DNA of 52,850 nt from a virus (IMGVR_UViG_3300020198_000024:1-52850), one strand, 5' to 3'; positions 1-34,138 are shown, counted from the stretch's first letter. Numbers and translations are program-made. The notes: generated from the sequence alone by a model not told the origin.

Positions 1-411
1 CATGTTCGGGAGGATCACCGTCTGGTCGGGCGCCGTCAGGATGTCGGCCGTCTCGGCCATGAAGTGAACACCGCAGAACACGATGAACTTCGAGTCTCGC
101 TCCCTGGCCGCCATCTGCGACAGCTTGTACGAGTCGCCCCGGAAATCGGCGTACTTGATGACGTCAGGTCTCTGGTAGTGGTGGCCCAGGACGACCACCT
201 GCTTGCCGAGCGCCCTGCGGGCCTCGGAAATGCCACAGTCGATCTCTTCGGGCGACAGCTTCAAGTACCGGATCGGGACCTTCTGCCAGCGAACGCCGGA
301 GGCGAACTCCTCTTCGAGCGTCTTGGTGCGAAGCGTTTCGGTCGTGCAGAACGCCGACTGTTCGAGTTCCGTTATGGGAACGACAATAGGCTTTCTCAGT
401 GCTGTGGTCAT
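1..411 (-). CDS. nadA: quinolinate synthase A, N-terminal part (runs off window start); host-like GC-rich gene missing from the ORF track
   Basis: Manual translation from ATG at 411: MTTALRKP...VVVLGHHYQRPDVIKYADFRGDSYKLSQMAA...IVFCGVHFMAETADILTAPDQTVILPNM. GHHYQR, GDS and FCGVHFMAE are NadA signatures. Purine-rich RBS (GGGAGAAGGGA) upstream. Confidence 0.95.
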   Translation of the reverse strand, partial: MTTALRKPIVVPITELEQSAFCTTETLRTKTLEEEFASGVRWQKVPIRYLKLSPEEIDCGISEARRALGKQVVVLGHHYQRPDVIKYADFRGDSYKLSQMAARERDSKFIVFCGVHFMAETADILTAPDQTVILPNM

Positions 412-657
412 TCCCTTCTCCCTGGCATTGCTAGATCGAGCACTCCGTTCTTTATTGAGTACTCCTATTATCTATTAGCATCTATATATTTTCTTTTTCA
501 CTGAAACAATCTTCAACAAAAATAATATTTTTATTTTTTCTATCATTTCGTTTCCATTCAAACCAAGACAAAGTTGCAAAACTAGATATCATTAATATAG
601 TAAATATTAAACCAATTACAAATACAATTATACTAAAAAAGATTAATTCAGTTAATA

Positions 658-966
658 TCATAAAACTTCAAGTGCATCAAAATTAAAAGTTTCTTTAAAC
701 AGAAACCATTTCAATTTGTCTGAAGGAGAACTAAAATACTCGAAACCAAGAGGAATTTGTGTTCTTGAGATAAAGCCATTAAGAAACATTTCGTCTAAAA
801 TGATCTTATCTTCTGCTTGAACTAAAGAAGTCACATTATTTGGAATACGTCGTGGTAATTGGTTAAGTAAAAATAATTTTAAAGCTAATTTATCCACCAT
901 TGATCTTCGCATTATCTTTTGCTTTTCTATAAGCTTCCCCGACTTTATATGATAAACTTTCTTCAT
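658..966 (-). CDS. hypothetical protein
   Basis: ORF co-oriented with and overlapping the upstream gene; true start may be a later Met. Confidence 0.5.
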   Translation of the reverse strand: MKKVYHIKSGKLIEKQKIMRRSMVDKLALKLFLLNQLPRRIPNNVTSLVQAEDKIILDEMFLNGFISRTQIPLGFEYFSSPSDKLKWFLFKETFNFDALEVL

Positions 967-3900
967 TTAAATCCTTTATTCCGGACCAAGAAGAACCAAT
1001 CATTAGCTTCTTGCCAAGATGATCCCCATATGGGGCGTTAGATGGATTAAATAGAGCAAAGTCCCAAGAATGAGTTAATTTTGGTATTTTATCATCCATT
1101 ATATCAAGTTCTTCAGGAGAAAGATGTTGACTCTTAATCCACTCTAGGATTTTTGATTTCTGCGAACTCGGTGAGTACTGCTGCAATGCTTGTTGTTCGG
1201 TTTCTGGGGATGATTCATCTCTAAAAGGAGACACCATTTCGTTTAATACAAAATTTTCACGAATAAAGTCTTCTACATCATTAAAATCTCTTGTTCTCCA
1301 AGCCCTGGAAATTGAAGAACAGAATTGTTTAAGATTAGGTCCAAGTGCAATATCAGATTCCGGGTCTGCATCTTGTAAAGCAAAATCAAATCCTTGTAAT
1401 GCCCACGCATAACCACCAACGTCATCGTTCGCTAATAACGATATACTAGGGATACCAAGTATTTTATAAGCGTGTTCTGAGTTTTGGAGAATATCTGTTC
1501 CAATACCTTGGTTCTGATATCTTGGTCCCAAGAAGAATGAAGAATGATAAACTGACGAGTCAATAACATTAGTATTACTAGGATCAGTTGTTTTACGAAA
1601 CTTCCGATGAAGCGATCCTATTTTTGCTCCAGACGCATTTCTTATGCTAGCTTCAACGTTTAAACTGTGAGAATTACTGATGTGTACGTTGTTTATATCG
1701 TACGAAGACCAATTTCTCATTGGTTCTATTGATACAATATCAATATTAATACCTTTTTTTGAAGTTCCAAATGCAATAGACAAAAGTGCGGCAGCATCTT
1801 TTCTTTCAAACCAATTATTAATCATTTCTTTGCTTCGTTCAGAAGAATACTTGGCATAATAAAATATCCCTCCTCTTGGTCCAGTTAAAATTGGTTCATT
1901 ATGTGGAGAAGTTTGCCCAGGTTCAATATATTGTTTTCTAGCTTCACCAGAATTCAAATGATTTTCTCTTTCACCGATTTCAAATCTGCTAATAGGAAAT
2001 TCTTGTTTTAACAAACCGTCCTGTTTTCTTTGTCTGATAACCAAATTTAAGGCTGCAGCTACATCTTGTGTAGGATAAGAATATAGAGATCTATGAGGAT
2101 TTTTTATTTCATCCGTCGACCAATAGAATCCAAAGTTTCTCGACCCCGGAATTTCTAATCCAGCTTTCTCTAAATCCTCAAGAAATACTAGATTCTCTCT
2201 TGGAATATGACGATTTACTGCAAATTCCGGCTTAACAAAATTCTTCCAAGATTCATGATCATGTAATTCTGCTTCTTTTACTTTAGGAACAATTAAGTGG
2301 GGAAAATCGGTCTCTGGAATTGTATCAATATTTTCAACATCAATAATTCTTTCCAAACCTCTTTCTGGTTTATATCTGAACTTTACATGATCGTTTAAGT
2401 CATAAACTTTCGTTTCTTTGGCAATTCCTGGGGAATGTATTATAAAAGCTGTTTTAAATAGGTCGCTTTTTTTAACGGTGTCTTTTTTAAAACCATAGTG
2501 TGGAAACGAATAAACCATTGGTGGTCGATCCAAAATTTTATCTAATTTTGTAGTTATTACTCCACGATCATGTCCATCTGGATGAAGACCTTCATTTTTA
2601 ATTTTATTTATAATTTCAGTTGGATTATAAATAACATGAGGTCCACTAGCAAATCCTATTTTATGCCTCCCAATTCCAGTTCCGGTAGTAGCCGGAGAAC
2701 CACCAATGCTTTCTTCTGAAACATTCAAAGGAATTTCTTGCTTATTTAAATTAAGTAACTCAGAAGCATTTTCTTTATCTTCAGAGTCAAGCTCTTCTTC
2801 GATAACTTTGTCATTGAGATTAGGTGTTTGGTTTAAAAAACTTGGTTTATCTTCTGAAGTTAAAACATTAAGAAGTGGTTTTCTTTTTCCACCTGAAACT
2901 ACATCTGGAGAAGAAAGAGGGTCTGGATCCCATTTTTCATTAACCCATTGTGTTGATTTTTGTATTGATTCTTTTTTATTTTGCATTATAAAACGAAGAA
3001 TAGGTTTAAACAAACCAAGTTTGTAATTGTCAATTTCATCTTCAGTAATCCATTCAAAACCACGATGTTCTTTAGATAATTTTGGAATCATTTCATGATC
3101 AATATTTGCTGAAAATATAAGAACCAATTTATTATTTTCACCTAGTTTTTCAAAAGAATAAGTTAAAAATTTAAGATGATCAATTCCAAGTTTAGTTTCT
3201 TCATGAACTTCTCTTTTTAACGCCTCATCAGATGATTCATCAGTATACATTTTTCCACCAGGAAGATCCCACCATTCTGAATCTGAGTCTCTTAAAATAA
3301 GGACTTTTCCTTCCGAATTAAAAATTCCAACCTTTTGTGAAATATCTTTTTTACTTTCATCGACAAACTTTTGAAGAAGTTGGTAATTTCCAGATCCTTC
3401 ATTAATTCTTTCAATAGCTGTTTTTGGATATACGCTTCCCTGACTTACCAGTGCAGTATCTTTTGTGCCGGCTTTAGCTGAATTTGGAGCGTCACCGACA
3501 TTCTGTGGAACCATTGCAGATTTCTTTTCCCCTTTCTGTATTTGTTCTGGCTTTATCTTAAATGGATGAATATCATAAGCTCCACCACCATAATGAGTAA
3601 GTTTATCAGACAAACGATTAGTTACGTCTAGAGGCTCAATATCTCCGGAATAATGAACTTCAAGATCTACGTCAGAAGCAGGAGTTGGAGAGCCTGAAGC
3701 ATAAGATCCTCCAAGTTTAACTTCATGAATTTTAACTTCTGGAACTAAGCTTTGTGCCGAAGAATGCAAAGAATCTTTTGTCCTATTAAAATGGTTGACA
3801 ACAGAAGATTTAAAATTAGAGAAATCCTCTTCTTCTTTAACTCCTGATGTAGGTGACGGTGCTGCTGCAGACGGTCTCAGTTCTGGATAGTCTGCAAGAA

Positions 3901-4411
3901 CCTCCGGTGGAACGGGCTTTCCTTCCTTAAGTGCCTGTTGCACACTATATTTGTGGATTAATCGTCTTGCATCATCCGAGGTCGAATGCTCTTCCCATTC
4001 TTCTTCTATAGGTGCTCCAAACGAGGCAGGTAAAACAGGATGCTTGGTTCCACGAGCTTTGAGTTCATTAAAAACCGCCTTGGCAGCCCTGCCACTGAGT
4101 AGTCCCCTGTTTTTATCAAGACCCATCTCTAATACTTCGTTATTTGGAGTTAAAGTTGCCGCCATGACAGGCTTACCCTTGGGGTCTCGGTAAACAATAT
4201 GAGTCATATATGAACGCATAAAGGGCTCTTCTTCAATTGACAACCCAGGCTCGCCACTCCCAACCCGACTCAACAAAATACTTACTAAGTCGATCTTTGG
4301 AGCGTCACCGACAAACCTCTCCCGAGTCACCTGCCACGGGTGCTTCAGGGGTTCTGATATCTTATCACGCCACCATGGTTCTTTTGAAATATCTTTCTTT
4401 AATGACGTCAT
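890..4411 (-). CDS. large polyvalent protein: nucleotidyltransferase + NUDIX + putative ADP-ribosyltransferase-fold + GNAT domains
   Basis: GGSYASG..SDVDL (pol-beta NTase); LPGG..DESSDEALKREVHEET (Nudix box); H..KIKNEGLHP..VYSF..EFAVNRHIP (ART-like, weaker); YQNQGIG..GGYAWALQGFDF (GNAT). Confidence 0.8.
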   Translation of the reverse strand: MTSLKKDISKEPWWRDKISEPLKHPWQVTRERFVGDAPKIDLVSILLSRVGSGEPGLSIEEEPFMRSYMTHIVYRDPKGKPVMAATLTPNNEVLEMGLDKNRGLLSGRAAKAVFNELKARGTKHPVLPASFGAPIEEEWEEHSTSDDARRLIHKYSVQQALKEGKPVPPEVLADYPELRPSAAAPSPTSGVKEEEDFSNFKSSVVNHFNRTKDSLHSSAQSLVPEVKIHEVKLGGSYASGSPTPASDVDLEVHYSGDIEPLDVTNRLSDKLTHYGGGAYDIHPFKIKPEQIQKGEKKSAMVPQNVGDAPNSAKAGTKDTALVSQGSVYPKTAIERINEGSGNYQLLQKFVDESKKDISQKVGIFNSEGKVLILRDSDSEWWDLPGGKMYTDESSDEALKREVHEETKLGIDHLKFLTYSFEKLGENNKLVLIFSANIDHEMIPKLSKEHRGFEWITEDEIDNYKLGLFKPILRFIMQNKKESIQKSTQWVNEKWDPDPLSSPDVVSGGKRKPLLNVLTSEDKPSFLNQTPNLNDKVIEEELDSEDKENASELLNLNKQEIPLNVSEESIGGSPATTGTGIGRHKIGFASGPHVIYNPTEIINKIKNEGLHPDGHDRGVITTKLDKILDRPPMVYSFPHYGFKKDTVKKSDLFKTAFIIHSPGIAKETKVYDLNDHVKFRYKPERGLERIIDVENIDTIPETDFPHLIVPKVKEAELHDHESWKNFVKPEFAVNRHIPRENLVFLEDLEKAGLEIPGSRNFGFYWSTDEIKNPHRSLYSYPTQDVAAALNLVIRQRKQDGLLKQEFPISRFEIGERENHLNSGEARKQYIEPGQTSPHNEPILTGPRGGIFYYAKYSSERSKEMINNWFERKDAAALLSIAFGTSKKGINIDIVSIEPMRNWSSYDINNVHISNSHSLNVEASIRNASGAKIGSLHRKFRKTTDPSNTNVIDSSVYHSSFFLGPRYQNQGIGTDILQNSEHAYKILGIPSISLLANDDVGGYAWALQGFDFALQDADPESDIALGPNLKQFCSSISRAWRTRDFNDVEDFIRENFVLNEMVSPFRDESSPETEQQALQQYSPSSQKSKILEWIKSQHLSPEELDIMDDKIPKLTHSWDFALFNPSNAPYGDHLGKKLMIGSSWSGIKDLNEESLSYKVGEAYRKAKDNAKINGG

Positions 4412-4422
4412 ATAACTATTAC

Positions 4423-5355
4423 CTATGCATAATCTATCTCAGGAAGGGTATGACCAAAACGACTTCGAAAATTTTCTCTCTCTTTACTGTGTTTGAAACT
4501 CCTTTTTAGCCTATCAACTCTTTCTTCTGTGAGAATTTTCCTTATCATATTTGCTGCATCTTGATGATCACGAGCAGCAGCAAGTAAACCGATAACTGTA
4601 TCATGATTTTCTTTGGGGTCGGAGTGTGGAGACGTATCAAAAGCCTCGTTAGCCTTTAATCGAAATCTATGGGCAGCCTGGGAGTGGACATCATGTAAGC
4701 TTCTTAGATTCATGGGTCTATCATTAATACTAGGATAATGATAGAATACTGTACTTATTGGTTCACCAGTATCCGGATAACTACCACTATAATGATGAAT
4801 AACTCCGTCCCCCCATTGATTCTCTCCCGAAAGTTTCTTCCTATTCACCGGATAAAACTCTGGTGGCTTCCATGATTCAGCTTCATCTGGGCTTACTCTA
4901 TGATCAAGACCATAACTGTTGTAAAAAGCCTTTCGAGCAGCTTCGGCGGCATGATGAGAGGCAGCCGCCTTGTGACTGAAATGTTCTGTCGCCTTTCTAG
5001 TACTTTCGAGATTATTTGGTGGATAAACTGAATGGGCTTCAGGGTTCCAAGCTAAATTAGCTTGATTACGATGATGCATGGCTTGAGCCATATGCTCGGC
5101 CGGAGACATCTTTTGGTTATGTTCAGAACTAACACCCCCATCATAATTGTACTTGATTCCACCAGTCGGAGTTATCTCCCTGGAAGCATAGGTTCCAGAA
5201 GCATTTCCCTCCCCCCACAGATCAGCACTATGTTGTGGATGCCACCATGTTGTCTCCATTGCATCTTTGTACAATTTTTCATTCTCTGAATGAGATAAAT
5301 TTTCCTCTTTCTTTAAAGATTTAAACCAATTTGGATACATTTTTGTTAATTTCAT
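4423..5355 (-). CDS. His-rich paralog 1 with MKLTKMYPNWFKSLKK leader (putative capsid-internal protein)
   Basis: Shares leader and body motifs (ITPTG, GGVSSEH, AAASHHAAEA, PMNLR, RFGH) with neighbours. Confidence 0.75.
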   Translation of the reverse strand: MKLTKMYPNWFKSLKKEENLSHSENEKLYKDAMETTWWHPQHSADLWGEGNASGTYASREITPTGGIKYNYDGGVSSEHNQKMSPAEHMAQAMHHRNQANLAWNPEAHSVYPPNNLESTRKATEHFSHKAAASHHAAEAARKAFYNSYGLDHRVSPDEAESWKPPEFYPVNRKKLSGENQWGDGVIHHYSGSYPDTGEPISTVFYHYPSINDRPMNLRSLHDVHSQAAHRFRLKANEAFDTSPHSDPKENHDTVIGLLAAARDHQDAANMIRKILTEERVDRLKRSFKHSKERENFRSRFGHTLPEIDYA

Positions 5356-5363
5356 AATTTTAC

Positions 5364-6266
5364 CTAATTCTTAGGAAGTTCATGACCAAAACGCCTTTGA
5401 AAATCTATTCTCTTTTTACTAGGTTTTGATGTCAGAGCTTCTTCAATACGAATTTCATTAATCAAATTTGCTACCTCTCGATGAGTACGAGAAGCACCTA
5501 TTAAACCCATAACCACGTCATGCTTTCTCTGAGGATCGTCTCGAAAAGTATCTGAATTGTGCTGTTCCACAGCCATTAATTTAAGAGCATCACGTAATTC
5601 GGTGTGGGTCTTATGTAAAGCTCTCAGATCCATAGGTTCCCCCTTATCATTAGTAAAAGGGGAGATTATAACCGAATGATTACCACTATAAGTGTGGATA
5701 ACTCCCTGGTTCTTGGCCCCAAGGTGTTGTTTACGAACAGGTTCAAACTCTGGTGGCTTCCATGATTCATATTCTTCTGGTTTCATTCTTGGATCTAAAC
5801 CATGACCAAGGTAAAAAGCCTTCCGACCAGCTTCGGCGGCATGATGAGAGGCAGCAGCTGAATGAGCTTTTGCATTATCATATATATTGTTAGCTGTCTG
5901 GACCGTGACTTGCGGGTAATCGGGTCCACGGTCGGTAATCGTATTAAAATAGTTCTGTGTTGACTGCAAAGCATCCACCCAGTGACTCAGGGCTTTATTC
6001 CAATGATCCATTGGAGTCATATCTTTTTTATGTTCAGAACTAACACCCCCACCATACTTGTAAATAGCCCCAGTCGGAGTTATCTCCCTGAAAGTGTAGG
6101 GTCCAAAATCATTTTCCTTTCCCCATGGATCACCACCATGATGTGGATTATGGAATGACATTGCCATTGCATTTTTGTAAATGTTCTCATGTGATAAGTC
6201 CTCTGGAGAATTTTCCTCTTTCTTTAAGGATTTAAACCAATTTGGATACATCTTTGTTAATTTCAT
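5364..6266 (-). CDS. His-rich paralog 2 with the same leader
   Basis: Identical first 18 aa; FHNPHHGGDP, AAASHHAAEA, GEPMDLR. Confidence 0.75.
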   Translation of the reverse strand: MKLTKMYPNWFKSLKKEENSPEDLSHENIYKNAMAMSFHNPHHGGDPWGKENDFGPYTFREITPTGAIYKYGGGVSSEHKKDMTPMDHWNKALSHWVDALQSTQNYFNTITDRGPDYPQVTVQTANNIYDNAKAHSAAASHHAAEAGRKAFYLGHGLDPRMKPEEYESWKPPEFEPVRKQHLGAKNQGVIHTYSGNHSVIISPFTNDKGEPMDLRALHKTHTELRDALKLMAVEQHNSDTFRDDPQRKHDVVMGLIGASRTHREVANLINEIRIEEALTSKPSKKRIDFQRRFGHELPKN

Positions 6267-6274
6267 AATTTTAC

Positions 6275-7156
6275 CTACTCATCAGGGAAAGGAAGTGAAA
6301 AATCAAAACGCTTCAAAAATTTTTCTCTTAGATATTTACTATTGTCACTGACGTTGCCTCCAGATTCCGCAGAGATAATTTTATCAATTATATCTGCTGC
6401 ATCTCGATGAGCACGAGAAGCAGCAATATAACTAACAACCGCTTCATGATTTTTCTGGGGATCAGAATGGTGAGGGTTCTTATAAGCATCTTCAGCCTGT
6501 GATTGAAATTGGTCACGAAACTGGGCGTTGACATCACGTAAGTTTCTCAGATTCATAGGTTCACCATTACCAAGCCAATGGGCAATTGTAGTCTTTATTG
6601 GTTCACCATCCCGTGAAGTACCCTTAAAAGTGTAGGTAGATCCCCCATTCGATCCTGGCAAGAGTTTCTCTTCATGCACAGGTTTAAACGTTTTTGGCGT
6701 CCATTTGTTGATATAAGTGAGTCTCATATGCGGTTCATTAATGTACTCAGGAGAAGACATATAAGCAGCTCTCGCAGCATGATGAGTTGCAGCTGCCCTA
6801 TGAGATAGGGCGGCGCCGGGATAATGACCAGGATAACGCTCCTTCAACTCCGCTTGATTTATATGATGCTTGGCTTGATTTAGATGATCATATGCAGACA
6901 TCATTGACCAGTCTTTATGTTCAGCAGTAACACCACCAGGATAATGATAAGTGAATCCATTCGGAGTCATCTTCTCGGAAGTGTAGGTTCCATAGGGATT
7001 TCCATTTCCCAATGGATCACCACCATGTATTGGATTATGGAATGAAAGTCCCAGTGCTTCTTGGTGAATTTTCTCATTACTTGGGAATCCAGCCGAAGGA
7101 TTTTCTTCTTTCTTTAAGGATTTAAACCAATTTGGATACATTTTTGTTAATTTCAT
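6275..7156 (-). CDS. His-rich paralog 3 with the same leader
   Basis: Identical first 18 aa; FHNPIHGGDP, AAATHHAA, GEPMNLR, HSDPQKNH. Confidence 0.75.
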   Translation of the reverse strand: MKLTKMYPNWFKSLKKEENPSAGFPSNEKIHQEALGLSFHNPIHGGDPLGNGNPYGTYTSEKMTPNGFTYHYPGGVTAEHKDWSMMSAYDHLNQAKHHINQAELKERYPGHYPGAALSHRAAATHHAARAAYMSSPEYINEPHMRLTYINKWTPKTFKPVHEEKLLPGSNGGSTYTFKGTSRDGEPIKTTIAHWLGNGEPMNLRNLRDVNAQFRDQFQSQAEDAYKNPHHSDPQKNHEAVVSYIAASRAHRDAADIIDKIISAESGGNVSDNSKYLREKFLKRFDFSLPFPDE

Positions 7157-7161
7157 TAATT

Positions 7162-8088
7162 TTACCTCTTTTTTGTTGTCTTTGGTGTCGTTGTCTTTGA
7201 TGTTGTTGTCTTTGGTGTCGTTGTCTTTGATGTTGTTGTCTTTTGTGATGTGGTCTTTTGTGATGTGGTCTTTGGTGTCGTTGTCTTTTGTGATGTGGTC
7301 TTTGGTGTTGTTGTCTTTTTTGATGTGGTCTTTGGTGTTGTTGTCTTTTTTGATGTAGTCTTTGGTGTCGTTGTCTTTTTTGATGTGGTCTTTGGTGTCG
7401 TTGTCTTAGGTGACGGTGCTGCTGCAGACGGTCTAAATGCTTCCTCGTATCGGTCGAGCAAATCTGGAGTCAGCTTTCTAAAGGGACTTTTTGAACGTAT
7501 CCACGATTCTGGATAGTCTGCAAGAACCTCCGGTGGAACGGGCTTTCCTTCCTTAAGTGCCTGTTGCACACTATATTTGTGGATTAATCGTCTTGCATCA
7601 GACGAGCTCGGCTGACCAAACCAACTAGTTAAAATCTTCTGTTCAGGATGCTTGATTCCACGAACTTTGAGCTCAGTAAAAATAGCATTGGCAGCCTTGC
7701 CACCGAGTAGTCCCCTGTTTTTATCAAGACCCATCTCTACTACTTGGCCATCTGAATCTAAAGTTGCCGCCATGACAGGCTTACCCTTGGGGTCTCGGTA
7801 AACAATATGAGTCAATGTGCTATAGCGACCATGCAGAAAGGGCTCTTCTTGAGTTGACAACCCAGGCTCGCCACTCCCAACCCGACTCAACAACTCACTT
7901 ACGTAGTCGGGGTCCGCTTCTTCAGCGTTCCCGACAAACCTCTCCCGCATCACCTGCCACGGGTGCTTCAGGGGTTCATTGACCCAGTCGTCTTCGTCGT
8001 CCTCTATACCATCACGCCACCATGGTTCTTTTGAAATATCTTTCTTTAAGGATCTAACCCAATTTGGAAACATCTTCGTTAATTTCAT
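7162..8088 (-). CDS. leader-bearing protein, paralog of the N-terminal domain of 890..4411, with Lys/Thr-rich repeat tail
   Basis: MKLTKMFPNWVRSLKK leader; near-identical blocks to 890..4411 (HIVYRDPKGKPVMAATL, QQALKEGKPVPPEVLADYPE); PKTT/SKKTT tail. Confidence 0.8.
   Translation of the reverse strand: MKLTKMFPNWVRSLKKDISKEPWWRDGIEDDEDDWVNEPLKHPWQVMRERFVGNAEEADPDYVSELLSRVGSGEPGLSTQEEPFLHGRYSTLTHIVYRDPKGKPVMAATLDSDGQVVEMGLDKNRGLLGGKAANAIFTELKVRGIKHPEQKILTSWFGQPSSSDARRLIHKYSVQQALKEGKPVPPEVLADYPESWIRSKSPFRKLTPDLLDRYEEAFRPSAAAPSPKTTTPKTTSKKTTTPKTTSKKTTTPKTTSKKTTTPKTTSQKTTTPKTTSQKTTSQKTTTSKTTTPKTTTSKTTTPKTTKKR
7172..7411. repeat. coding tandem repeat of ~15-nt units (PKTTT/SKKTT/SQKTT)
   Basis: Repeated gtctttggtgtcgtt / gtcttttttgatgtg units. 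Confidence 0.95.
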
Positions 8089-8109
8089 AATTTTACCTCT
8101 TTTTTTAAA

Positions 8110-8298
8110 TCATTCTTTAAAAGTTGTCATAGATTGATTAGAAGGTTCCAATTTATCTGTGGCTGTCTCGACTATCCCACCCAACTTTTTTTTCGCATCT
8201 AAAGCCCAAGACTTTATATAGTCATCAAGAGAAGAGCTAAATTCTTCTACGACACGACTTGGAAAAAGATTATTCTTCATATTTATAACTCCCAACAT
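8110..8298 (-). CDS. small hypothetical protein
   Basis: Fills the gap between co-oriented genes; start probably MKNNLF at 8280. Confidence 0.45.
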   Translation of the reverse strand: MLGVINMKNNLFPSRVVEEFSSSLDDYIKSWALDAKKKLGGIVETATDKLEPSNQSMTTFKE

Positions 8299-9220
8299 AC
8301 CCTTCTCGAGCTTGAGGAGAATTCCAACCTATTAAACGATGGAATCCATCAAACCAATAAATATCAGCTATATTTGTATCTAGATTCAAAATCAAAGATA
8401 TAGTAACTGGCTTCCTCTTTTTACCTAATTCACGGAAAACATGTTGTTTACGTTCCATAATAGCATCCATTTTGCGATGGCCCCATTCTTCTTTTGCTTC
8501 ATCAGAAGCATCTTTTAACCAGTTTGTCTCTTCCTCCCCTTGTTCACCTATAGTAACACGCCACTTCTGAGAGTCTGGTTGATTAAGAGATAACCCAGCC
8601 TTAACTTCGACTAACAGGTCTCCGGCAATTAAATCTACAGGATAATTACCTCGTCCAACATTTAAAAACTGAACATCCTTGTGTCCTTGATCAATCAAAA
8701 ATCTATGAGCTATACTTTCACCAAGCGTTCCAGTTTTTGAATGGGAAAGTTGACGTGTACCAGTAGGTTTACCTTCCCACGCCCTATCATTTACTGGAGT
8801 TAATCGAACTCGTGGCTCACTAATTAACTTTTTCTCTTCCTCAGTCATAGTTTCATCTTGTGGACCATAATCTCGACCGGCAGCCTCTGTTAGAGTTGAT
8901 TGGGACGGAACAGTTTCTTGTAAACTAACATTTGGTTTTAATTCAGTCGTTGTTGGTTTTACTCCAGTTAAAACTGAAATTTCAGAAGAATCTTCTTCTT
9001 TTTTAAGAAAATTATCTAAATCTTTTTTTCTCTTTCTAGTATCTCCACCATAGGTCGGAGTAAAAACTCCAGAATCAGAAGAAGTTGCTACAGTTCCTGT
9101 CCCGCCCCCATCTCCACCACCGCTTTCTTTACTAAGATTAGAACGAAGATTGGAAATGACTAACCATTCAGCAAACTGTTGAACTGCAGATTTACGCAAG
9201 ATCGAGGTTTTCAATGTCAA
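8270..9220 (-). CDS. protein with low-complexity N-terminus and C-terminal PD-(D/E)XK nuclease domain
   Basis: GTLGESIA..PVDLIAGDLLVEVK fits E..PD..ExK; directly downstream of portal. Confidence 0.7.
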   Translation of the reverse strand: MTLKTSILRKSAVQQFAEWLVISNLRSNLSKESGGGDGGGTGTVATSSDSGVFTPTYGGDTRKRKKDLDNFLKKEEDSSEISVLTGVKPTTTELKPNVSLQETVPSQSTLTEAAGRDYGPQDETMTEEEKKLISEPRVRLTPVNDRAWEGKPTGTRQLSHSKTGTLGESIAHRFLIDQGHKDVQFLNVGRGNYPVDLIAGDLLVEVKAGLSLNQPDSQKWRVTIGEQGEEETNWLKDASDEAKEEWGHRKMDAIMERKQHVFRELGKKRKPVTISLILNLDTNIADIYWFDGFHRLIGWNSPQAREGYVGSYKYEE

Positions 9221-11138
9221 GCTTCTCCGGTCTGTTTACTTGTGTTTCAAATCTACTAGCAGCAACAGTTCTTGGAAACCTAAATTCTCCCGGTTCAACT
9301 CTAAGTAATTTTGTACCAGAATATTTAGCTAAATAATTTTTGTCTCCATGTTGAAACCAAATTTCTGACATGTCTGGAGAAACTTTTTTAATGTCTGGGA
9401 AGTATCCCTGATCAATTAATTGAGACACTTGAGTTTCAGCTTTTTCCATTAAATGTACTCCAGTTCCAGTACCACTAGATGGATTAGTTAATGATCCTTT
9501 GCCTGTTCCAGGAGTTGGAATTCTTTTAGCTGGAGAACCAGACACGCTTCCAGACGCCGTTCCACCATCTTGGCCAGGAACTGCCCCACCAGCTCCAGCA
9601 GCCATACCCATCATCTGTTGTTGCTGTTCCATGAGGCTAAGAAGTTGTCCTGAAACAGTGAAATCAATTTGATCAATTCCTACTCCCTGGCTTCTTAATG
9701 AAACTTCCGCACCCATCTGTTGAAGCAATTGTGCAATTGCAATTTTCAATTGAGCAAACATTAATCTTGTCGCTTCTGCTTTTTCTTCAGGAGTTGGAAG
9801 TTGAAGTGTCCAGTCAGTTATTCCAAACGCTTCCATAATAACTGGAAATACTTTTTCATGATAAATTCTTTGATCACCCTCAACTACTCTAGACATAACA
9901 ACAAGTTGTTGAGTCGCTGTTTGCATACCACCAAAAGCTTCTGGAGATCCTTGCCAAGTCGGAGTAACACCCCACATAGCAGCAACACGCTCTCTAATTT
10001 CTTGTCTTACTGGCAAATAATCCATTTCTTGTAGAGTATGGAATAAACGAACCATATCTACTCGACCACGATTTTGTCTATTCGAGACTGCAACCATTGG
10101 TATATAGTTCGGATCTTGTCTTGTTTTAGCTGCAATATTCTCTCGTTCAACTTTCAATGATTCTGGATCGTCTGTAAAAACCATAATCATTGAAGCTGGC
10201 ATTTTTCTTTCAAAGAAATAACGATAAAGGTTTTTATCCATTGCAATTAGAGTTAATGCTTTTTCAAAGATTGTTAAGATTGGGCTCCAACCATAAGTTT
10301 CTGTTGCCCGGAACTTTGAATGGTGAATAATCTCTGAATCGAGAAGATATAAAACTCCATTTGCATGGCGGTAAACCCACATTGCTGGAACCAGGTCTAA
10401 TCCACAGTCTTCTACATCACACTTTCCGGGTTCATTTTTAGATTTTTCATCACGATGAATATAGCAAAACCAATTAGAATTTTTTGGCAATCCTTGAGAA
10501 TCAAGATCAATAGTAACAAGGGCGGGATTTAAACGACGAATTTCTTTTATTTTTGAACGTATTTTTCCATCTTCAGTTCTAGCATATTCTTTGGCCAAAT
10601 AAAGAAATCCATCGTCGACTACATTAATATCTTCATGAAACTGTCTAAGAATTTCTTCAAATGAATTATCAAATACATTAGCATCTTTAAAATATGGTTC
10701 AAATTTTGCTTTTTGAGATTCGTCTGGTTCAGAGAACTCTTTAGATTGACAAACTTTGCATACCTTTTGTACATCTTGATATTCAGTTTTACAATTTTTA
10801 CATTTCACTGCAAACTTTGCCTTCCAAAGAATTCCTCTTCGGAAAACCTCAGAGACTATATGATGAATTGGAGCTCTAACTTCTTGACAAACAACTGAAA
10901 TTGTTTGAATATCTTGAACCAAGAACTGGCGATAAGCCATTTGATGTTGAACCCACATATTAATGACTTGATCAATTCCGAGAGTCGGAAGAGCAAATCT
11001 GGAGTCAGCATTTTTATTACCTTTTTCCAAGAAAGTTCCAGTCTCATGCATTTCTGAAAGAAACTTAGTTACAAAATTAAGATCAGCTTCTCGTTTAACT
11101 AAAGCTGGAATTTCAGGAATAAAGTCTTTTAGTTTCAT
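9192..11138 (-). CDS. phage portal protein with Cys-rich insertions
   Basis: EDINVVDDGFLY, IRRLNPALV, EIIH, YGWSPI, ERVAAMWGVTP pattern of HK97-type portals; near terL. Confidence 0.85.
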   Translation of the reverse strand: MKLKDFIPEIPALVKREADLNFVTKFLSEMHETGTFLEKGNKNADSRFALPTLGIDQVINMWVQHQMAYRQFLVQDIQTISVVCQEVRAPIHHIVSEVFRRGILWKAKFAVKCKNCKTEYQDVQKVCKVCQSKEFSEPDESQKAKFEPYFKDANVFDNSFEEILRQFHEDINVVDDGFLYLAKEYARTEDGKIRSKIKEIRRLNPALVTIDLDSQGLPKNSNWFCYIHRDEKSKNEPGKCDVEDCGLDLVPAMWVYRHANGVLYLLDSEIIHHSKFRATETYGWSPILTIFEKALTLIAMDKNLYRYFFERKMPASMIMVFTDDPESLKVERENIAAKTRQDPNYIPMVAVSNRQNRGRVDMVRLFHTLQEMDYLPVRQEIRERVAAMWGVTPTWQGSPEAFGGMQTATQQLVVMSRVVEGDQRIYHEKVFPVIMEAFGITDWTLQLPTPEEKAEATRLMFAQLKIAIAQLLQQMGAEVSLRSQGVGIDQIDFTVSGQLLSLMEQQQQMMGMAAGAGGAVPGQDGGTASGSVSGSPAKRIPTPGTGKGSLTNPSSGTGTGVHLMEKAETQVSQLIDQGYFPDIKKVSPDMSEIWFQHGDKNYLAKYSGTKLLRVEPGEFRFPRTVAASRFETQVNRPEKLDIENLDLA

Positions 11139-11189
11139 AAATTATGCTCCAATATAAAATGGATAAAGATTTTGATAAATAAAAGTCAT

Positions 11190-11621
11190 TTAATTCTCCA
11201 TTGAATCAATTGCTAATACTTTCAAAATATTGTCCATAGCATGCTTTTTAAGGGCGAAAGATTCTGTCATTGGAGGTGCCTCTGGAGTTTTTGGTTTAGC
11301 TAAAAGCATTTTCTGAAGATTTTCTATTTCGGCTTTATAGGATGAATTCTTTTCTGTCAATCTCTCAACTTCCTCTGAATTTGATGCGATCATAGCATTT
11401 TCAAGAATTCCCATTCTAGTAGCAGTTTTTACTAGATCAATAAAAGCTGCTTCAGGAAGAATTGTTAATGCTGGATGATCGTCTTCAATTTCATCTTCAA
11501 TATTAACGTTCTTCAAACTTGGATGCCAGGTATCAAGAAGTCTCCAAGTGTGAGTTTTTTCATCATATTGAGAAGAAAATCTATTTTCTCTTTGCTGCAA
11601 AGTACTTCCCATAGTTGTCAT
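11190..11621 (-). CDS. hypothetical protein (C-terminal coiled coil)
   Basis: ORF with GAGGTG RBS. Confidence 0.7.
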   Translation of the reverse strand: MTTMGSTLQQRENRFSSQYDEKTHTWRLLDTWHPSLKNVNIEDEIEDDHPALTILPEAAFIDLVKTATRMGILENAMIASNSEEVERLTEKNSSYKAEIENLQKMLLAKPKTPEAPPMTESFALKKHAMDNILKVLAIDSMEN

Positions 11622-11720
11622 TTCAATTCACCTCAATTAACTTGTATAAACAACATTTCTATTCAAAGAACACATATATTTATAATAAAAATTTCTTATT
11701 CTTTATATTGTATTTCAAAT

Positions 11721-14237: not shown

Positions 14238-14699
14238 TTAGTCTCCCTTTGAATACGACATTAATAAATGATATCTACGCTCTTCTTCAGCCCCAGACCA
14301 TTTCTCAACTTTTTCAAGAGAAAGAAGCTTTCCTGTATCTGATCTAATAGCATGAGTTTTATTGGTTTTATTATCATTTTTCTTGGCAATTTCTTTTAAA
14401 GCAGAACATATATTTCGATCATATGCTTTGCAATGTCCAATTACCACAAAAAGAACATCTCCTAACTCTAACGATGCTTGATCTAATTGCCTTTTTGAAA
14501 TGGCTTCTTTAAATTCATTAATTTCTTCGTCTAAAATTTGGTGACGCTCATTTTCAAAAAGTTCTTGAGGATCTCTTAAAACAAGCCCAACAACATTTCC
14601 GTCTTTCGATTTTGAACCTTCAAAGCCCCATCTTTCATGAAAATTCCAAACAGATTCTGCAATAATTTCAATTGCAGACATAAATTCGTCTTTTGTCAT
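14238..14699 (-). CDS. MazG-like nucleotide pyrophosphohydrolase
   Basis: EEINEFKEA..ELGDVLF all-alpha NTP-PPase motif. Confidence 0.8.
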   Translation of the reverse strand: MTKDEFMSAIEIIAESVWNFHERWGFEGSKSKDGNVVGLVLRDPQELFENERHQILDEEINEFKEAISKRQLDQASLELGDVLFVVIGHCKAYDRNICSALKEIAKKNDNKTNKTHAIRSDTGKLLSLEKVEKWSGAEEERRYHLLMSYSKGD

Positions 14700-16357
14700 T
14701 AATTTCCTCGATTCATTATAAGTTTATTAAGCTGTGCTTCCATTTTATTTGATTTACAAATAATACAAATTCCAGATTCTACATCATATCCAATATGTTG
14801 ATGACAAGTTGGACAGGAAATTTTATTTTCTTTTGGCTTATCAAATGCTTGGGAACCATAGACTGAAGAAATTGGTTTAGTCTCTGAAGATTCTATAAAA
14901 AAATTCATATCACCAAGATCAGTTATTGATTTAGTATCCAGCTCTTTTAAAGCAAGACAAGCAAGAGCACAAGAAAAAAATGAATCTCCATGTCCAGCAG
15001 GAGTTTCTGCTGCTTGTAAATCTCTATTAACACAAGTTATTTGACTTTTTTGGCGACTATCTTCGATTATGAAAAACATACCAGAATGGACATAATGATC
15101 AAATGCTGAAGCCATCTGAAATTTACTTTTTAAGGTAAATGTTATTGGACGCCAAACTCTATTAAGTCCACGATCTTCTAATTCAGCTTTTGTATTATCA
15201 TAATATCCTCTAGTCACATGAAATTTTTCTGCAATTTTATTTAAATGTTCAGCTTGATTATCATATAACCATTGATCCATAAATCGACTGTAAAGTTGAT
15301 AAAATTTTTCTTCTTTCTTACCAAAGACTACAATATGAGAAGGATGCTTTTTCTTTCCAATATCAAATCCAGCTACAACATAGTCATATTTTTTGATTTC
15401 TTCCTGAAGATCTTCAGAGTCTGGGTCGTAATTTCTTAAGTTAACATCTTCACACGACGTAATTTCAGCTTCTGAAAAGTAAGAATCTGTTGAAAGCCTT
15501 GGAGCTAGTAAAAATTCAGTCTCAAATGAAGAAGGAGAACTTTTTTTAATCTTAAGAAGATCTTCTTCTGAATAAAGCTCTGGGAATAAAACTCTTTTTC
15601 CAGGAAGTGGGTCAAGAGCCGGAAGAATAACTGAATTAAATCTCTCGTCTTCTTTTAATTTTGCTAACAAATCATCGGGAAGCATTGGAGTACCAAGAAC
15701 AATAATTGGACATCCCTTGTTTGGAATGAACATAGATTCTGTTTTAAAATGCTCTTCTATTTTATAGACTTGATCTGGGGTTAATGGATTTTGAGGATCT
15801 TTTAAAAGATCGTCTGCTACCATTGCTCCAGTATGCATTCCTCGTTTGAAGGCGTATAATCCACCATGTTCAATTTGAATTTGACGACGACCAATTTGAT
15901 ACCTAAATGAATAATCTGCATCGTTAGATCTATCTGTCATTATTGGATTTAAAACTGGGTTACGTCGAATAGCATTTTTAGCTTCTTTGATATGATATTG
16001 ACTCATCTTAGCGTTATATGAAAGATAAAGAAGAGAGGCGTCGCTAGGTTGCTTTAAAAGATGCCATACAGAAAATCCATGTCCAAGAATTGTACTTTTT
16101 AAATGCATACGAGGGAGAACTGCCATAAAATATTTATCTTCGGCTAAAGCCCTTTCAAGTTCATTACAGATGTAGCCAACATGCCAAGCATCAAAGTATG
16201 ACTTCTTTTCGTATCCTAGAGACCAAATATCTCGGATAAATTCCCAAAAAGTACCAACTTTAACAAATTTTACGTCTAATAGCTTATCTACAAGAGAAGC
16301 TAAGCCGTCAGAATAAGATACTAATTTTCCGCCTGGTTCCCTGTTCGTTCGTCCCAT
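14699..16357 (-). CDS. terL: terminase large subunit
   Basis: PRMHLKST (Walker A-like), RG.H..MVADDL (Walker B), LGTP, GFDIG and HGDSF nuclease motifs. Confidence 0.9.
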   Translation of the reverse strand: MGRTNREPGGKLVSYSDGLASLVDKLLDVKFVKVGTFWEFIRDIWSLGYEKKSYFDAWHVGYICNELERALAEDKYFMAVLPRMHLKSTILGHGFSVWHLLKQPSDASLLYLSYNAKMSQYHIKEAKNAIRRNPVLNPIMTDRSNDADYSFRYQIGRRQIQIEHGGLYAFKRGMHTGAMVADDLLKDPQNPLTPDQVYKIEEHFKTESMFIPNKGCPIIVLGTPMLPDDLLAKLKEDERFNSVILPALDPLPGKRVLFPELYSEEDLLKIKKSSPSSFETEFLLAPRLSTDSYFSEAEITSCEDVNLRNYDPDSEDLQEEIKKYDYVVAGFDIGKKKHPSHIVVFGKKEEKFYQLYSRFMDQWLYDNQAEHLNKIAEKFHVTRGYYDNTKAELEDRGLNRVWRPITFTLKSKFQMASAFDHYVHSGMFFIIEDSRQKSQITCVNRDLQAAETPAGHGDSFFSCALACLALKELDTKSITDLGDMNFFIESSETKPISSVYGSQAFDKPKENKISCPTCHQHIGYDVESGICIICKSNKMEAQLNKLIMNRGN

Positions 16358-25638: not shown

Positions 25639-25639
25639 T

Positions 25640-26131
25640 TTATAGGCCTTTCTTGCTAAGATCACTAAATAGATTTGTGACAACTTCAACTTCATTAAGA
25701 GATGGATTGTCTTTAGTCAGTCGAACGATCGTCGACTCATCTCTGATTAACCAGTCATATACTCCACGCATTGCCGCGAGATCAATGTTTGAATATGAAG
25801 AATGCGTTTGTATCGGATTATATGAATGCATGTAGATAAGAATATATTGATGATGCTTCATCAACAATTCTCTAAGTCTAAAAAACTCTTCCGTAACATC
25901 TAGATTATGTCGAACTTTAGAGAAAACGACGTCGGACCAAATGAATCGATCAAAGATCGTATCTTGAGAAAGCTGCTTGATTATATCTTCATTTTCTGGA
26001 TGAAATGATGGAAGAGCTTGAATGTTCTTTGGTCTTGCAAAAACAGACAACTGTGTTTGCTTCACTAAGCGGTTGATTAAAGTGCTTTTGCCTGATCCAG
26101 GAATACCTTCTACGATGATTAGGTTAGCCAT
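25640..26131 (-). CDS. dNMP (thymidylate-type) kinase
   Basis: IIVEGIPGSGKST P-loop, IFDRFIWSD; start refined to MANL at 26131. Confidence 0.85.
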   Translation of the reverse strand: MANLIIVEGIPGSGKSTLINRLVKQTQLSVFARPKNIQALPSFHPENEDIIKQLSQDTIFDRFIWSDVVFSKVRHNLDVTEEFFRLRELLMKHHQYILIYMHSYNPIQTHSSYSNIDLAAMRGVYDWLIRDESTIVRLTKDNPSLNEVEVVTNLFSDLSKKGL

Positions 26132-31936: not shown

Positions 31937-33575
31937 TCATGTCCTGCCCTTCTATCATTAAATGATAATCTTCGACGGAAAGTTTAACAATACTCATTGT
32001 ATCAGACCCGCTCAAGAAATCTTTTATAGCTTTTTGCCTTCGAAGAAATACTTTCATGATACCTTCATCTATTGTATTCTTTAAAAATGGTCTATAAACA
32101 AAAACTGGATTTTTCTGGCCAATTCGATGTAAACGATCTTCTCTCTGTATCATTGTAGCTGGATTATGTACAAACCCATAATGAACAATTGTATCAGCCC
32201 CGACCAAATCCAAACCGAATTTTCCGGCATCAGTAGAGATAAGAATTGCTTTGGAAGCAGCATTAAACTTTTTTGAAATATCAAATCTATCATTAGCATC
32301 AACTTCTCCAGTTATATAAAATGGTGTCTTGAAGTATTGTATTAGTCTATTCGCACTTTCTCTAAAAAAAGTAAAAACTACTACTTTATTTGTTTGATCA
32401 TAAAGTTCAGATAACCAAGTTAATTTCGAAGGAGTATCTTTCCAAGACGGGTCGACAATGTCTGGAAATTCTGTGAACTGCCTACAGTTTACTGTACCAT
32501 CCCAAATTGCAGCAGATGAAAATCCTCCGGAAGCAGATTCTTGAATCCATTCCTTAAACTTTTTCGACAAAGATGAGTACATTTTTATTTCGGAGTCTGT
32601 CATTTCTATTGGTATATCATCTGGTGGCATTTTTTCTGGTAAATCTGAGACTATATTCTTATCTGTCTTTTCTCTCCTTAATATAAAAGGGCTTGTCAAA
32701 AGATGCAATTCCGGAAGTTTATCAGTTGTCCCAATAATTTTCTTGGTAAACTCATCTATCTCACAATATCTGTATTTAAATTGAAAGGCTGACGGAATAA
32801 TCTCCGGTCTAATCCATTCCATAATAGCTTGAAATTCCATTAAATTAGTTTCTATATAAATACCAGACAAAGCAATTCTAGCTTCACTCTTAAGTTTTCT
32901 AGCTAACTTTGTTCTTTGTGCTTTTGGATTCTTAAGATAAACTGCTTCATCAGCAATTATTGAAGACCATTCTTTAGGAATAATATCCCAATCTTTGATT
33001 AAAAGATCATAATTGCAGATTATATAAGGAGAAGGAAGACTTTCCCATATTGCTCGACGATCTTCTTTGGTACCAGATACAACACATGCTTGCAGTCCAA
33101 AATGTTTCATAAATTCGTCTTGCCACTTCCATTTAACAGAAGCTGGACAAAGAATTAAATTATATTTTCCGTTAAGACGGCAAATTGCTTCGATAGATTG
33201 AATCGTTTTTCCAAGCCCCATATCGTCAGCAAGTAAAGCTTTTTTAGCTTTTACGAGAAATTCAGCCCCCACAACTTGATATGGTCTCAAAAGTGGATGT
33301 TGAGCCCCTTTTGATAACTTCAGATTAACCAGATCTAATAATAATTTTTGTATCTTAATTGCAGCTTCTTGGGCTTCAGGACTCCAAGATAAACTAGATA
33401 ATGGTTCAAGAGTTTTAACAGATAATTGTGGAACTTCCCAAACCTTGTCCTTTTTATTCCATTTACGAACTGGTAAATTACGCACTTCTTGAAGATGGTC
33501 TTTAAATTCAGCGTTACCACATTCATAGCCAAACGACAAAGTAAAAAAAGGCTTTTTATAATTTACTTTAATCAT
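31914..33575 (-). CDS. SNF2-family helicase with N-terminal HARP-like domain
   Basis: LRPYQ, DDMGLGKT, ADEAV, QREDRLHRIGQ; RKWN..KVW N-terminus. Confidence 0.9.
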   Translation of the reverse strand: MIKVNYKKPFFTLSFGYECGNAEFKDHLQEVRNLPVRKWNKKDKVWEVPQLSVKTLEPLSSLSWSPEAQEAAIKIQKLLLDLVNLKLSKGAQHPLLRPYQVVGAEFLVKAKKALLADDMGLGKTIQSIEAICRLNGKYNLILCPASVKWKWQDEFMKHFGLQACVVSGTKEDRRAIWESLPSPYIICNYDLLIKDWDIIPKEWSSIIADEAVYLKNPKAQRTKLARKLKSEARIALSGIYIETNLMEFQAIMEWIRPEIIPSAFQFKYRYCEIDEFTKKIIGTTDKLPELHLLTSPFILRREKTDKNIVSDLPEKMPPDDIPIEMTDSEIKMYSSLSKKFKEWIQESASGGFSSAAIWDGTVNCRQFTEFPDIVDPSWKDTPSKLTWLSELYDQTNKVVVFTFFRESANRLIQYFKTPFYITGEVDANDRFDISKKFNAASKAILISTDAGKFGLDLVGADTIVHYGFVHNPATMIQREDRLHRIGQKNPVFVYRPFLKNTIDEGIMKVFLRRQKAIKDFLSGSDTMSIVKLSVEDYHLMIEGQDMIGTSEAS

Positions 33576-34138
33576 TGAATAATTTCGTCAATTAAGCCAA
33601 AAGCCAAAGCTTCTTCAGCATCAAACCAAGCGTCTCGTTTATGAATAAACTTCTTCAACTCATCGATTGGTTGACCAGACCGCTCGGAGATAATCTCTAG
33701 TAAAATATTGTTAACCCGTAACATTTCCTTAGTATTTTCTTCGGCATCAGAAACCTTTTCATTTCCAAAATAATATTGAGAAACTTCATGCAAAAGTATT
33801 CTAGTATGTTTCGTAGCAAGTCTTTTATCTCCGGCCTGAAGCAATACTGAAGCAGCCGAAGCTGCATATCCGACTGCAACAGTCGTAACAGATACTCCTT
33901 CTTTTCTCGCCAAAAGAAGATAATCGTACATACCGAATAGAGGAAGAACTGAACCACCCTGACTTGTAATATAAACCGTTATCGGGTCACGCTTAGACTT
34001 ACTGACTAACCAATTAATTGAAGAATTGAAGTTAGCTGCGTCGTAGGTTGTTATTTCATCTGAGACGTATATCTTTCTTTGCTCTAAAAGATCATGTTCT
34101 ATTTTTGTAGATATTGGATTCTCTATGAAACCACTCAC
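33572..34138 (-). CDS. clpP: ClpP protease subunit
   Basis: SQGGSV, AASAAS (Ser), LLHE (His), RDAWFDAEEALAFGLID (Asp). Confidence 0.92.
   Translation of the reverse strand: MSGFIENPISTKIEHDLLEQRKIYVSDEITTYDAANFNSSINWLVSKSKRDPITVYITSQGGSVLPLFGMYDYLLLARKEGVSVTTVAVGYAASAASVLLQAGDKRLATKHTRILLHEVSQYYFGNEKVSDAEENTKEMLRVNNILLEIISERSGQPIDELKKFIHKRDAWFDAEEALAFGLIDEIIQ

Follow-up and report, generated by a model that had tools for sequence, protein, structure and literature searches.

The sequence analysed here (the window) is the whole assembly IMGVR_UViG_3300020198_000024:1-52850, 52,850 bp from an AT-rich phage with a GC content of about 35 %. The gene at 890..4411, on the minus strand, encodes a 1173-aa protein, P0001, in which several enzyme modules follow one another in a single chain. 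On balance, P0001 appears to be a polyvalent effector and the last member of a five-gene cassette of head-internal, ejected proteins, similar to the phage T4 proteins that carry a capsid targeting sequence (CTS). As judged from the sequence, the assignment of P0001 to the polyvalent proteins (Iyer et al. 2017) holds, and we infer that the protein is transferred with the DNA. An earlier note on this DNA had proposed a head-carried multi-enzyme polyprotein, cut at L/I-x-K motifs into its separate domains. The polyvalent-type class and a likely head destination, indicated by the position behind the portal gene and by relatives, are retained from that proposal; the generic separation of domains at L/I-x-K is not.

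The four genes upstream of P0001 begin with a common leader of 16 aa, MKLTKM[YF]PNW[FV][KR]SLKK, with the ribosome site AGGTAAAATT ahead of it. This shared leader is new in this analysis. Leader alignment shows it in full in the paralogues of 310 aa (4423..5355, leader MKLTKMYPNWFKSLKK), 300 aa (5364..6266) and 293 aa (6275..7156). The 308-aa protein (7162..8088) aligns with a variant of the leader, an N-terminal module of the P0001 type and a basic Thr/Pro/Lys repeat tail. All four genes are on the minus strand. P0001 itself starts MTSLKK|DISKEPWW and keeps only the last leader residues (SLKK). Comparison with the leaders identifies its residues 1-6, MTSLKK (4394..4411, minus strand), as a remnant that ends in an LKK|D joint, and the DNA ahead of P0001 is a shortened version of the start region of the leader genes. 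The string SLKKD, which had been listed as one of the L/I-x-K motifs, is the conserved end of a leader common to the four upstream genes.

The same array is present in a 5.4-kb metagenome contig, L082, as one cut and three complete paralogues of about 300 aa, together with a large gene that runs off the contig. Among the eight genes (four here and four in L082) the first 48 nt have a mean identity of 96.5 % (minimum 87.5 %, 28 pairs), and the site AGGTAAAATT is common to them as well. The bodies of the leader-bearing proteins are 30-50 % identical, except for one orthologous pair at 99 %. The L082 counterpart of P0001 (3749-5425, a 559-aa fragment) has the full leader, the N-terminal module, an insert and a nucleotidyltransferase (NTase), with 54 % identity to P0001 residues 3-287. 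These are followed by ..EIKK|DISKEPWW.. and a second N-terminal module that is 85 % identical to P0001 residues 4-187, so that P0001 begins exactly at what is an internal joint in its relative. The NTase copy of L082 is without the two motif aspartates (..SGVKLE.. vs ..SDVDLE..) and, by this sequence difference, may be inactive. The family of paralogues of about 300 aa consists of five proteins only, all from the analysed phage and L082, and the DNA pattern of the leader had 0 matches in IMG/VR. No PHROG family matched the four paralogues, while P0001 matched only PHROGs of NUDIX type and of unknown function. At the C-terminus, close to the stop codon, the three paralogues of about 300 aa (4423-7156) have the motif F-x-[RK]-R-F-[GD]-x-x-L-P in common, which gives them a second conserved end. 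The tail of the 308-aa protein, at residues about 225 to 308, is made of Thr/Pro/Lys repeats with units like TTTPKTTSKK and has a weak histone-H1-like match (0.0017); this protein is possibly a DNA-binding internal head protein.

The P0001 gene is the last of a tight block of same-strand genes that begins at the portal gene (9192..11138, minus strand; PHROG 18178, 9e-51). After the portal the block contains a 316-aa ORF, a 62-aa ORF, the genes of 308, 293, 300 and 310 aa, P0001 and a doubtful ORF of 102 aa, and the gaps inside the cassette are 8-12 nt. The P0001 ORF has an ATG start, with its stop codon included in 890..4411. A 1173-aa copy, P0002, is 99 % identical and lies on an independent contig of 20,742 bp; the long ORF is therefore not an assembly accident, and the claim of a 1173-aa ORF at this location is upheld.

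P0001 is laid out as an N-terminal module, a minimal Pol-beta NTase, a NUDIX hydrolase, a long linker, an orphan region and a C-terminal GNAT, all encoded on the minus strand. The N-terminal module (residues 7-177; 3881..4393) is 62-68 % identical to the 308-aa neighbour. A Pro/Ala/Ser/Glu linker (residues 178-199; 3815..3880), delimited by the end of the paralogue alignment and a coverage gap, leads to the NTase (residues 200-290; 3542..3814), which is recognised by Pfam, by homologues and by the motif GGS..DVDLE at residue 234. A further linker, starting with IQKGEKKS and defined by homologue coverage (residues 291-343; 3383..3541), precedes the NUDIX hydrolase module (residues 344-482; 2966..3382), which has its box at residues 386-408 and is identified by Pfam, PHROG and PDB matches. 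Next are a long acidic/Ser/Pro-rich linker of low complexity, delimited by sequence and coverage (residues 483-585; 2657..2965), and the orphan region, which is without a family or homologue (residues 586-899; 1715..2656). The chain ends in a GNAT fold with a helical C-terminal extension (residues 900-1173; 893..1714) that belongs to a large phage family (PHROG 25452/27103). The AF2 single-sequence model of full-length P0001 is unusable, with a mean pLDDT of 34.4, and the domain boundaries are therefore taken from homologue coverage.

Of these modules, the NUDIX hydrolase is certain as a sequence assignment. Its Pfam match at residues 363-461 has an E-value of 9.7e-16 (58.4 bits vs a cutoff of 21.1) and the box Gx5Ex7REUxEExGU at residue 386 is intact, with Lys replacing the last Gly. 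Among the matches listed (60 of 68), all 60 PDB sequence matches of P0001 are in the NUDIX region (residues 346-489). The NTase match at residues 227-257 (PF01909) is borderline in Pfam, with 21.2 bits vs a cutoff of 21. The NTase motif G[GS]-x(9-13)-D-x-[DE] is present at residue 234, and the homologue P0046, a 1609-aa protein with an SNF2 helicase, aligns over residues 194-292 and has an NTP_transf_2 match of 1.3e-7. The C-terminal GNAT is weak in Pfam (0.08-0.11) and its profile against the PDB gives 0.0033. An AF2 model of residues 900-1173 built from a 31-sequence alignment (A2) has a pLDDT of 81.8 and a pTM of 0.78, and a Foldseek search of the PDB with it returns NatD, AAC(3) and Naa60 at E 2.5e-4 to 1e-3, with NatC and TacT-type toxins also among the best matches and nine matches at E<=0.001. 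The TM(query) of the model is only 0.2-0.3 because half of it is the extra helical part. GNAT motif A (Q/R-x-x-G-x-G/A) is seen as QNQGIG at residue 966. As far as a predicted fold can do so, the model confirms the C-terminal GNAT.

The N-terminal module (about residues 7-177) is also found as a solo protein of 183 aa and inside proteins of 1209-7768 aa. It is possibly GNAT-like, since the homologue P0039 has an Acetyltransf_7 match in the aligned part; its profile found nothing below E 0.2 in the PDB. The earlier note had listed NTase, NUDIX, ART-like and GNAT domains. Three of these are found, the N-terminal module was overlooked, and the ART-like domain, in the middle of the chain at about residues 490-900, is unsupported by Pfam, homologue searches or the Atlas. 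In residues 560-900 there is no ART-type family in Pfam at E<=10, and the sole match there, to DUF2756 (0.015), is below the family cutoff. A word-index search with this region, covering proteins of 645-2053 aa, had no match other than P0001 itself, and residues 501-820 are covered by none of the 149 listed representative matches. The Atlas gave a DarT/PARP lead (0.75) for the middle region, which is under the noise level; Atlas scores are at most 0.78.

Relatives of P0001 share single modules with it. An exhaustive representative search returned 2636 proteins at E<=1e-3 (228 at 1e-10), matching single modules and not the whole chain. There were 0 full-length relatives in the isolate-phage collection and 0 in IMG/VR using six peptide patterns, and a word-index search gave only the protein itself. 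When 24 relatives were scanned with Pfam, 14 had families and 10 had none. The families in the 14 are GNAT (7), ART types (3; ADPrib_exo_Tox, ART-PolyVal and DRAT), Topo IB (2) and SNF2/helicase (2), as well as Phage_Mu_F, LPD38 and a zincin peptidase. P0062 combines ART-PolyVal with Phage_Mu_F, P0129 has LPD38, and P0018 and P0098 have ART types, each of these proteins aligning with a P0001 module.

At least 211 relatives of the C-terminal GNAT family are present in IMG/VR, and 14 viral loci were sampled for its context, in which 87 of the 130 ORFs of at least 110 aa were scanned, most ORFs under about 150 aa being left out. In 10 of the 14 loci the GNAT is within or adjacent to genes for portal, MuF, terminase, capsid or head protease, and in four of these 10 it is fused to MuF-type head-morphogenesis domains. 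One locus (L115) has, in its head module, a ClpP-type head protease (PHROG 94/2976) beside a polyvalent ART protein. Another (L090, 28-4608) has a 1526-aa protein that combines a portal with a NUDIX domain, behind which come a C-terminal GNAT-family member on its own and a head protease/capsid gene.

The position behind the portal can also be compared with other phages. Portal-relative loci numbered 95, of which 80 were kept and 17 read. The conventional order of portal, scaffold and capsid is present in 13 of the 17, and in the other four a giant ORF directly follows the portal. Two of these giants were scanned, both open-ended (L057 9773-15379, over 1869 aa, and L059 8243-17845, over 3201 aa). 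Each has DUF192, a CCA/poly(A)-type NTase with HD and two zincin peptidase regions, and the one in L059 also has SNF2; they are polyvalent proteins without detectable similarity to P0001. With 16 window proteins as tblastn queries, matches among 81 loci were limited to the portal (in 81) and the 143-aa protein (in 72), no cassette protein being among them. The nearest isolate-phage match of the portal is in the haloarchaeal virus HVTV-2, at 26.7 % identity. The gp113-gp115 region of HVTV-2 is similar to the present locus in the series behind its portal, with proteins of 1048 aa and 1313 aa, the latter annotated as zeta toxin plus ADP-ribosyltransferase, and a MuF-like protein between them. It differs in that these proteins have no detectable similarity to P0001 and in that the host of the window's phage is probably bacterial. 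This host assignment is based on a translation initiation factor IF3 homologue (37430-37837; IF3_C 1.2e-23, IF3_N 1.4e-10) and a sigma-70-type factor (34668-35198), both encoded by the phage, although the nearest isolate relatives of its portal are haloarchaeal viruses.

Polyvalent proteins are the closest known class. In the passages of PMC5512222 that deal with them, GNATs and Pol-beta NTases are among the protein-modifying domains, NTases are mainly in firmicute conjugative elements, and NUDIX is named once. It is argued there that the phage forms are carried in the capsid, with possible processing by embedded peptidases that would release domains. P0001 conforms to the class in having several unrelated effector-type enzyme domains (GNAT, Pol-beta NTase and NUDIX) in one chain, in being encoded beside the portal-terminase packaging module in the same strand and block, and in having modules that are shuffled among relatives with ART-PolyVal, MuF, LPD38, Topo IB and SNF2. 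It is different in that Pfam finds no embedded peptidase domain in it and no MuF (Phage_Mu_F) domain in it or its neighbours. The polyvalent slot is also partly split here, into separate genes that share a leader.

The T4 protease gp21 cuts after Glu in L/I-x-E. The T4 internal proteins IPI-III and the ADP-ribosyltransferase Alt share a CTS of 10-20 aa that gp21 removes, according to the relevant sections of PMC7411985 and PMC3012670, and the former describes A-x-E in SPN3US as reminiscent of the T4 gp21 motif. As in the cassette, the T4 proteins are diverse, with hypervariable bodies and only a short N-terminal peptide in common; one member is a host-modifying enzyme and the shared peptide ends at a possible protease site. 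The comparison is one of genes, in which a peptide is shared by four neighbours and four L082 genes, so that a head location for their products is suggested rather than seen. The cassette has no sequence similarity to the T4 proteins, as judged by the lack of a PHROG match, its leader ends in Lys-Lys and not in Glu, and the protease candidate is ClpP-type and not of the gp21 type. The cassette genes also form one array behind the portal, and P0001 keeps only the last leader residues. In phage P1 the N-terminal 30 residues of DarB suffice for capsid targeting, DarB is found in virions as a 250-kDa protein, and the Dar proteins have no common N-terminal consensus, as stated in part of PMC9024508. 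DarB would be like P0001 as a very large multi-enzyme protein that is loaded into the head through an N-terminal signal of <30 residues, with helper proteins. It is unlike the cassette in the lack of a consensus among the Dar proteins and in its enzymes, which are a methylase and a helicase; the comparison of homology extends to the absence of PHROG matches.

Under the reading as head-internal cargo, the leader, the shared N-terminal module, or both would bring the cassette proteins into the procapsid, and a cut after LKK would probably take the leader off. A DNA-associated role inside the head would fit the basic Thr/Pro/Lys tail of the 308-aa member. As infection begins, the NTase, the NUDIX hydrolase and one or two GNATs would enter the host together with the DNA as parts of P0001. 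The GNAT and the NTase may then act on host proteins, and the NUDIX hydrolase on nucleotides or RNA caps.

Several observations weigh against this reading. If the leader is the signal for targeting, P0001 may escape it, because 10 of the 16 leader residues are absent from the protein. The near-identity of the leader extends to synonymous sites, which points to gene conversion or an RNA-level constraint, for which a function of the peptide is not needed. No PHROG head-protein family matches a cassette protein, and four of the 14 GNAT-family loci are without an annotated head gene. The joint motif KK[DE] was defined post hoc, and five of its 11 sites in the six post-portal genes are homologous leader copies. 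The contig has no capsid or scaffold gene whose product, as a known protease substrate, could be compared at the cut site. Its only protease candidate is a ClpP-type serine protease (33572..34138, minus strand; Pfam CLP_protease 3.5e-36; PHROG 94, 8.3e-33), with visible motifs containing Ser, His and Asp. It is flanked by the Gam-like and helicase genes, 22 kb away within the replication region, and its prohead role is therefore assumed. A search of the same 81 loci as above with this protease gave no match.

A tentative alternative, which is rather unlikely, is that P0001 is a refined form of polyprotein, in which a ClpP-type head protease cuts after Lys-Lys before Asp or Glu and the leader remnant is removed. 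There would be about three to four pieces: residues 7-355 (N-terminal module and NTase), 356-480 (NUDIX) and either 481-1173 or 481-643 and 644-1173. A six-frame translation of the window contains only three copies of KKDIS, at P0001 residues 5 and 354 and at residue 15 of the 308-aa protein, and all three are at the N-terminal edges of modules, as the proposal would have it. The internal copy, at residues 354-358 (3338..3352, minus strand), is just ahead of the NUDIX core and begins seven residues before the NUDIX Pfam envelope. A joint-like KKE at residues 479-481 (2969..2977, minus strand), also from the motif search, is at the C-terminal edge of the module, so that sites 354 and 479 bracket it. 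The L082 counterpart has KKDIS twice, one copy being internal, and the only two KK[DE] sites in the 559-aa fragment are the two edges of its N-terminal modules. Six distant giant relatives have Pro/Ala-rich linkers ahead of the N-terminal module, which in them begins at ..KEPW..; this places the joint at a true module edge. Cleavage would give all N-terminal modules the same mature end, and the pairing of a ClpP-type protease with a polyvalent ART protein in the head module of L115 is a further point in favour.

The frequency of the joint motifs also speaks for the reading as head-internal cargo. Of eight LKK[DE] in all minus-strand ORFs of at least 40 aa, six are in the six post-portal genes, and these genes have 11 KK[DE] vs 2.74 expected, compared with 15 vs 12.7 in the other 47 proteins. 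P0001 has four, at residues 5, 354, 479 and 642, vs 1.24 expected (shuffle p 0.03). Against cleavage, only sites 354, 479 and 642 of this post hoc motif are independent of leader homology, and the 12 nt common to residues 5 and 354 use the codons expected in an AT-rich genome. There is no boundary motif between the N-terminal module and the NTase or before the C-terminal GNAT, and a search for recurrent 4-mers in the six giant relatives found no joint peptide. The N4 virion RNA polymerase is packaged nearly full length or trimmed only at its N-terminus, which also counts against a polyprotein. We know of no cut site for ClpP-type head proteases, a further point against it. T4 Alt (PMC7411985) and the 250-kDa P1 DarB (PMC9024508) are, in the portions of these papers that concern them, likewise packaged nearly full length or trimmed only N-terminally. 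If P0001 is cut internally, the sequence would allow this only at the KK|D/E joints at residues 354, 479 and 642, and such cleavage is doubtful.

It is similarly improbable, but of some weight, that the cassette proteins are not virion cargo at all. They would be cytoplasmic late proteins for host takeover or anti-defence, and the shared 5' element would be a translation-initiation or recombination cassette that gene conversion keeps uniform and that has no part in targeting. This would account for a leader whose 96.5 % DNA identity includes synonymous sites and the ribosome site. P0001 works with a truncated leader, a state that is stable in the second contig, and the absence of head-protein family matches among the cassette proteins is also in its favour. 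It does not explain why the genes are in the slot directly behind the portal, where relatives have giant polyvalent ORFs, or why the C-terminal GNAT family is found elsewhere as a fusion with head proteins of the MuF or portal type. The copy of the joint within a protein, where no start of translation would be required, and the basic repeat tail of the 308-aa member also argue against a cytoplasmic role.

Much less probable is the version in the earlier note, in which an HK97-type prohead protease separates every domain by cutting at generic L/I-x-K motifs between them, in the linkers. The seven motif strings that it quoted are present in P0001, at residues 3, 291, 346, 483, 555, 747 and 800, as are those quoted for the 316-aa ORF and the portal. 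Five of the seven are at or in homology-defined linkers, and the three [IL]QK (residues 291, 346 and 483) are all at boundaries. These seven are only part of 19 occurrences, however, and most of the other 12, which went unmentioned, are inside domains. The number expected from composition is 14.8 (ratio 1.28), and in 5000 shuffles (mean 14.8, sd 3.4) 14.3 % reach 19 (p 0.14). The ratio is like that of the other 52 proteins, with 214 observed vs 183.1 expected (1.17), including replication proteins and others such as the DNA polymerase (12 vs 8.6), the ribonucleotide reductase (RNR; 12 vs 8.9) and the terminase (10 vs 7.1). With linkers and boundaries defined from homologue coverage and the paralogue alignment, four of the 19 motifs fall in linkers, whose share of the chain is 15.7 % (binomial p 0.35), and five are within 8 residues of one of the eight boundaries (permutation p 0.078). 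Positional enrichment, on which the earlier note had staked the idea, is essentially absent, and L/I-x-K is not enriched either overall or in linkers. The premise of an HK97 prohead protease fails as well, with no HK97/S78-type protease among 53 ORFs scanned with PHROGs or 47 scanned with Pfam on this incomplete contig. In addition, two of the motifs were meant to mark the edges of the unsupported ART-like domain. The counts therefore largely refute this version.

That P0001 is a mis-assembled or falsely fused ORF can be dismissed as exceedingly improbable, since the ORF is continuous and has the GC content of the phage, the full-length protein recurs at 99 % identity on an independent 20.7-kb contig and L082 has an 85 %-similar counterpart, the one point in favour being a foreign 60 %-GC NadA fragment at 1-411 that shows some chimerism at the contig end.

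Nearly all genes of the contig are on the minus strand. In the direction of transcription, PHROG and Pfam scans show a block of tail genes (a tube-like protein, the tape measure and a 1167-aa protein), followed by small genes that include the IF3 homologue and a thioredoxin. The next block contains the sigma factor, a Gam-like protein, the ClpP-type protease, helicases, a primase, nucleotide-metabolism genes, a family-A DNA polymerase, a recombinase, and Cas4-like and RuvC-like nucleases. The terminase (14699-16357), a MazG-like gene, the RNR, the 143-aa gene and the portal come after these. No capsid or scaffold gene was found on the contig, either by PHROG and Pfam scans or with the capsid, scaffold and other post-portal proteins of a relative (L054) as queries, and the genome is therefore probably incomplete just beyond the P0001 region. 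Bases 1-411, with a GC content of 60 %, code for the first part of quinolinate synthase NadA (Pfam 5.1e-27) and are abruptly joined to phage DNA of 25-35 % GC. The contig end is therefore foreign or chimeric; of the two options, a chimeric assembly end and a host junction, the step in GC favours the former.

The 316-aa ORF (8270..9220, minus strand) overlaps the portal gene at its end, and its residues 65-76 include RKKD and FLKKEED. Its TTG start is 29 nt inside the portal end (9192-9220) and it is free of Met for about 120 residues. The start is therefore uncertain, and a fusion to the portal through a frameshift is conceivable. It carries the leader-like strings ..NLSKES.. and ..NFLKKEED... 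Searches of the PDB and Pfam with it found nothing, and its earlier label as a nuclease, confirmed by none of the tools, has only a PD-(D/E)xK-like string, spotted by eye, in its favour. The 102-aa ORF (658-966) overlaps the last 77 nt of the 1173-aa gene, has no family match and is doubtful as a gene. A promoter and terminator scan of 1-11700 gave counts equal to those of shuffles. Elsewhere, the region 22828-27884 includes a glycosyltransferase of the 'reversibly glycosylated polypeptide' type (24670-25695; PF03214, 1.2e-58), a UDG-superfamily protein (23934-24686), a thymidylate-synthase-like gene (26492-27472), a dCMP deaminase and a kinase. This suggests a possible DNA-modification cluster, with modified, perhaps glycosylated, bases.

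Polyvalent proteins are widespread and hardly tested by experiment, the questions being how they enter the capsid and whether they are cut. The locus described here offers a compact handle on both, in that four small genes have the 16-residue leader in common and module edges in two related phages carry a two-residue joint. It is conceivable, if rather improbable, that this lineage has a targeting and processing code of its own, independent of that of T4, in which the 16-residue leader and the Lys-Lys|Asp/Glu joint are read by a ClpP-type head protease and are used both at the starts of cargo genes and inside chains. If this is true, a 'polyvalent protein' and an 'array of internal proteins' would be interchangeable packagings of the same cargo, and P0001 would be processed as a genuine polyprotein, setting its NUDIX enzyme free inside the head or the host. 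Should the leader not be a tag, the locus would be a clean negative for the generic idea of L-x-K linkers, and motif lists from Lys-rich proteins need composition controls. Should the leader be a tag for targeting, foreign proteins could be loaded into phage heads through a second natural system, in addition to the T4 CTS and the N-terminus of P1 DarB.

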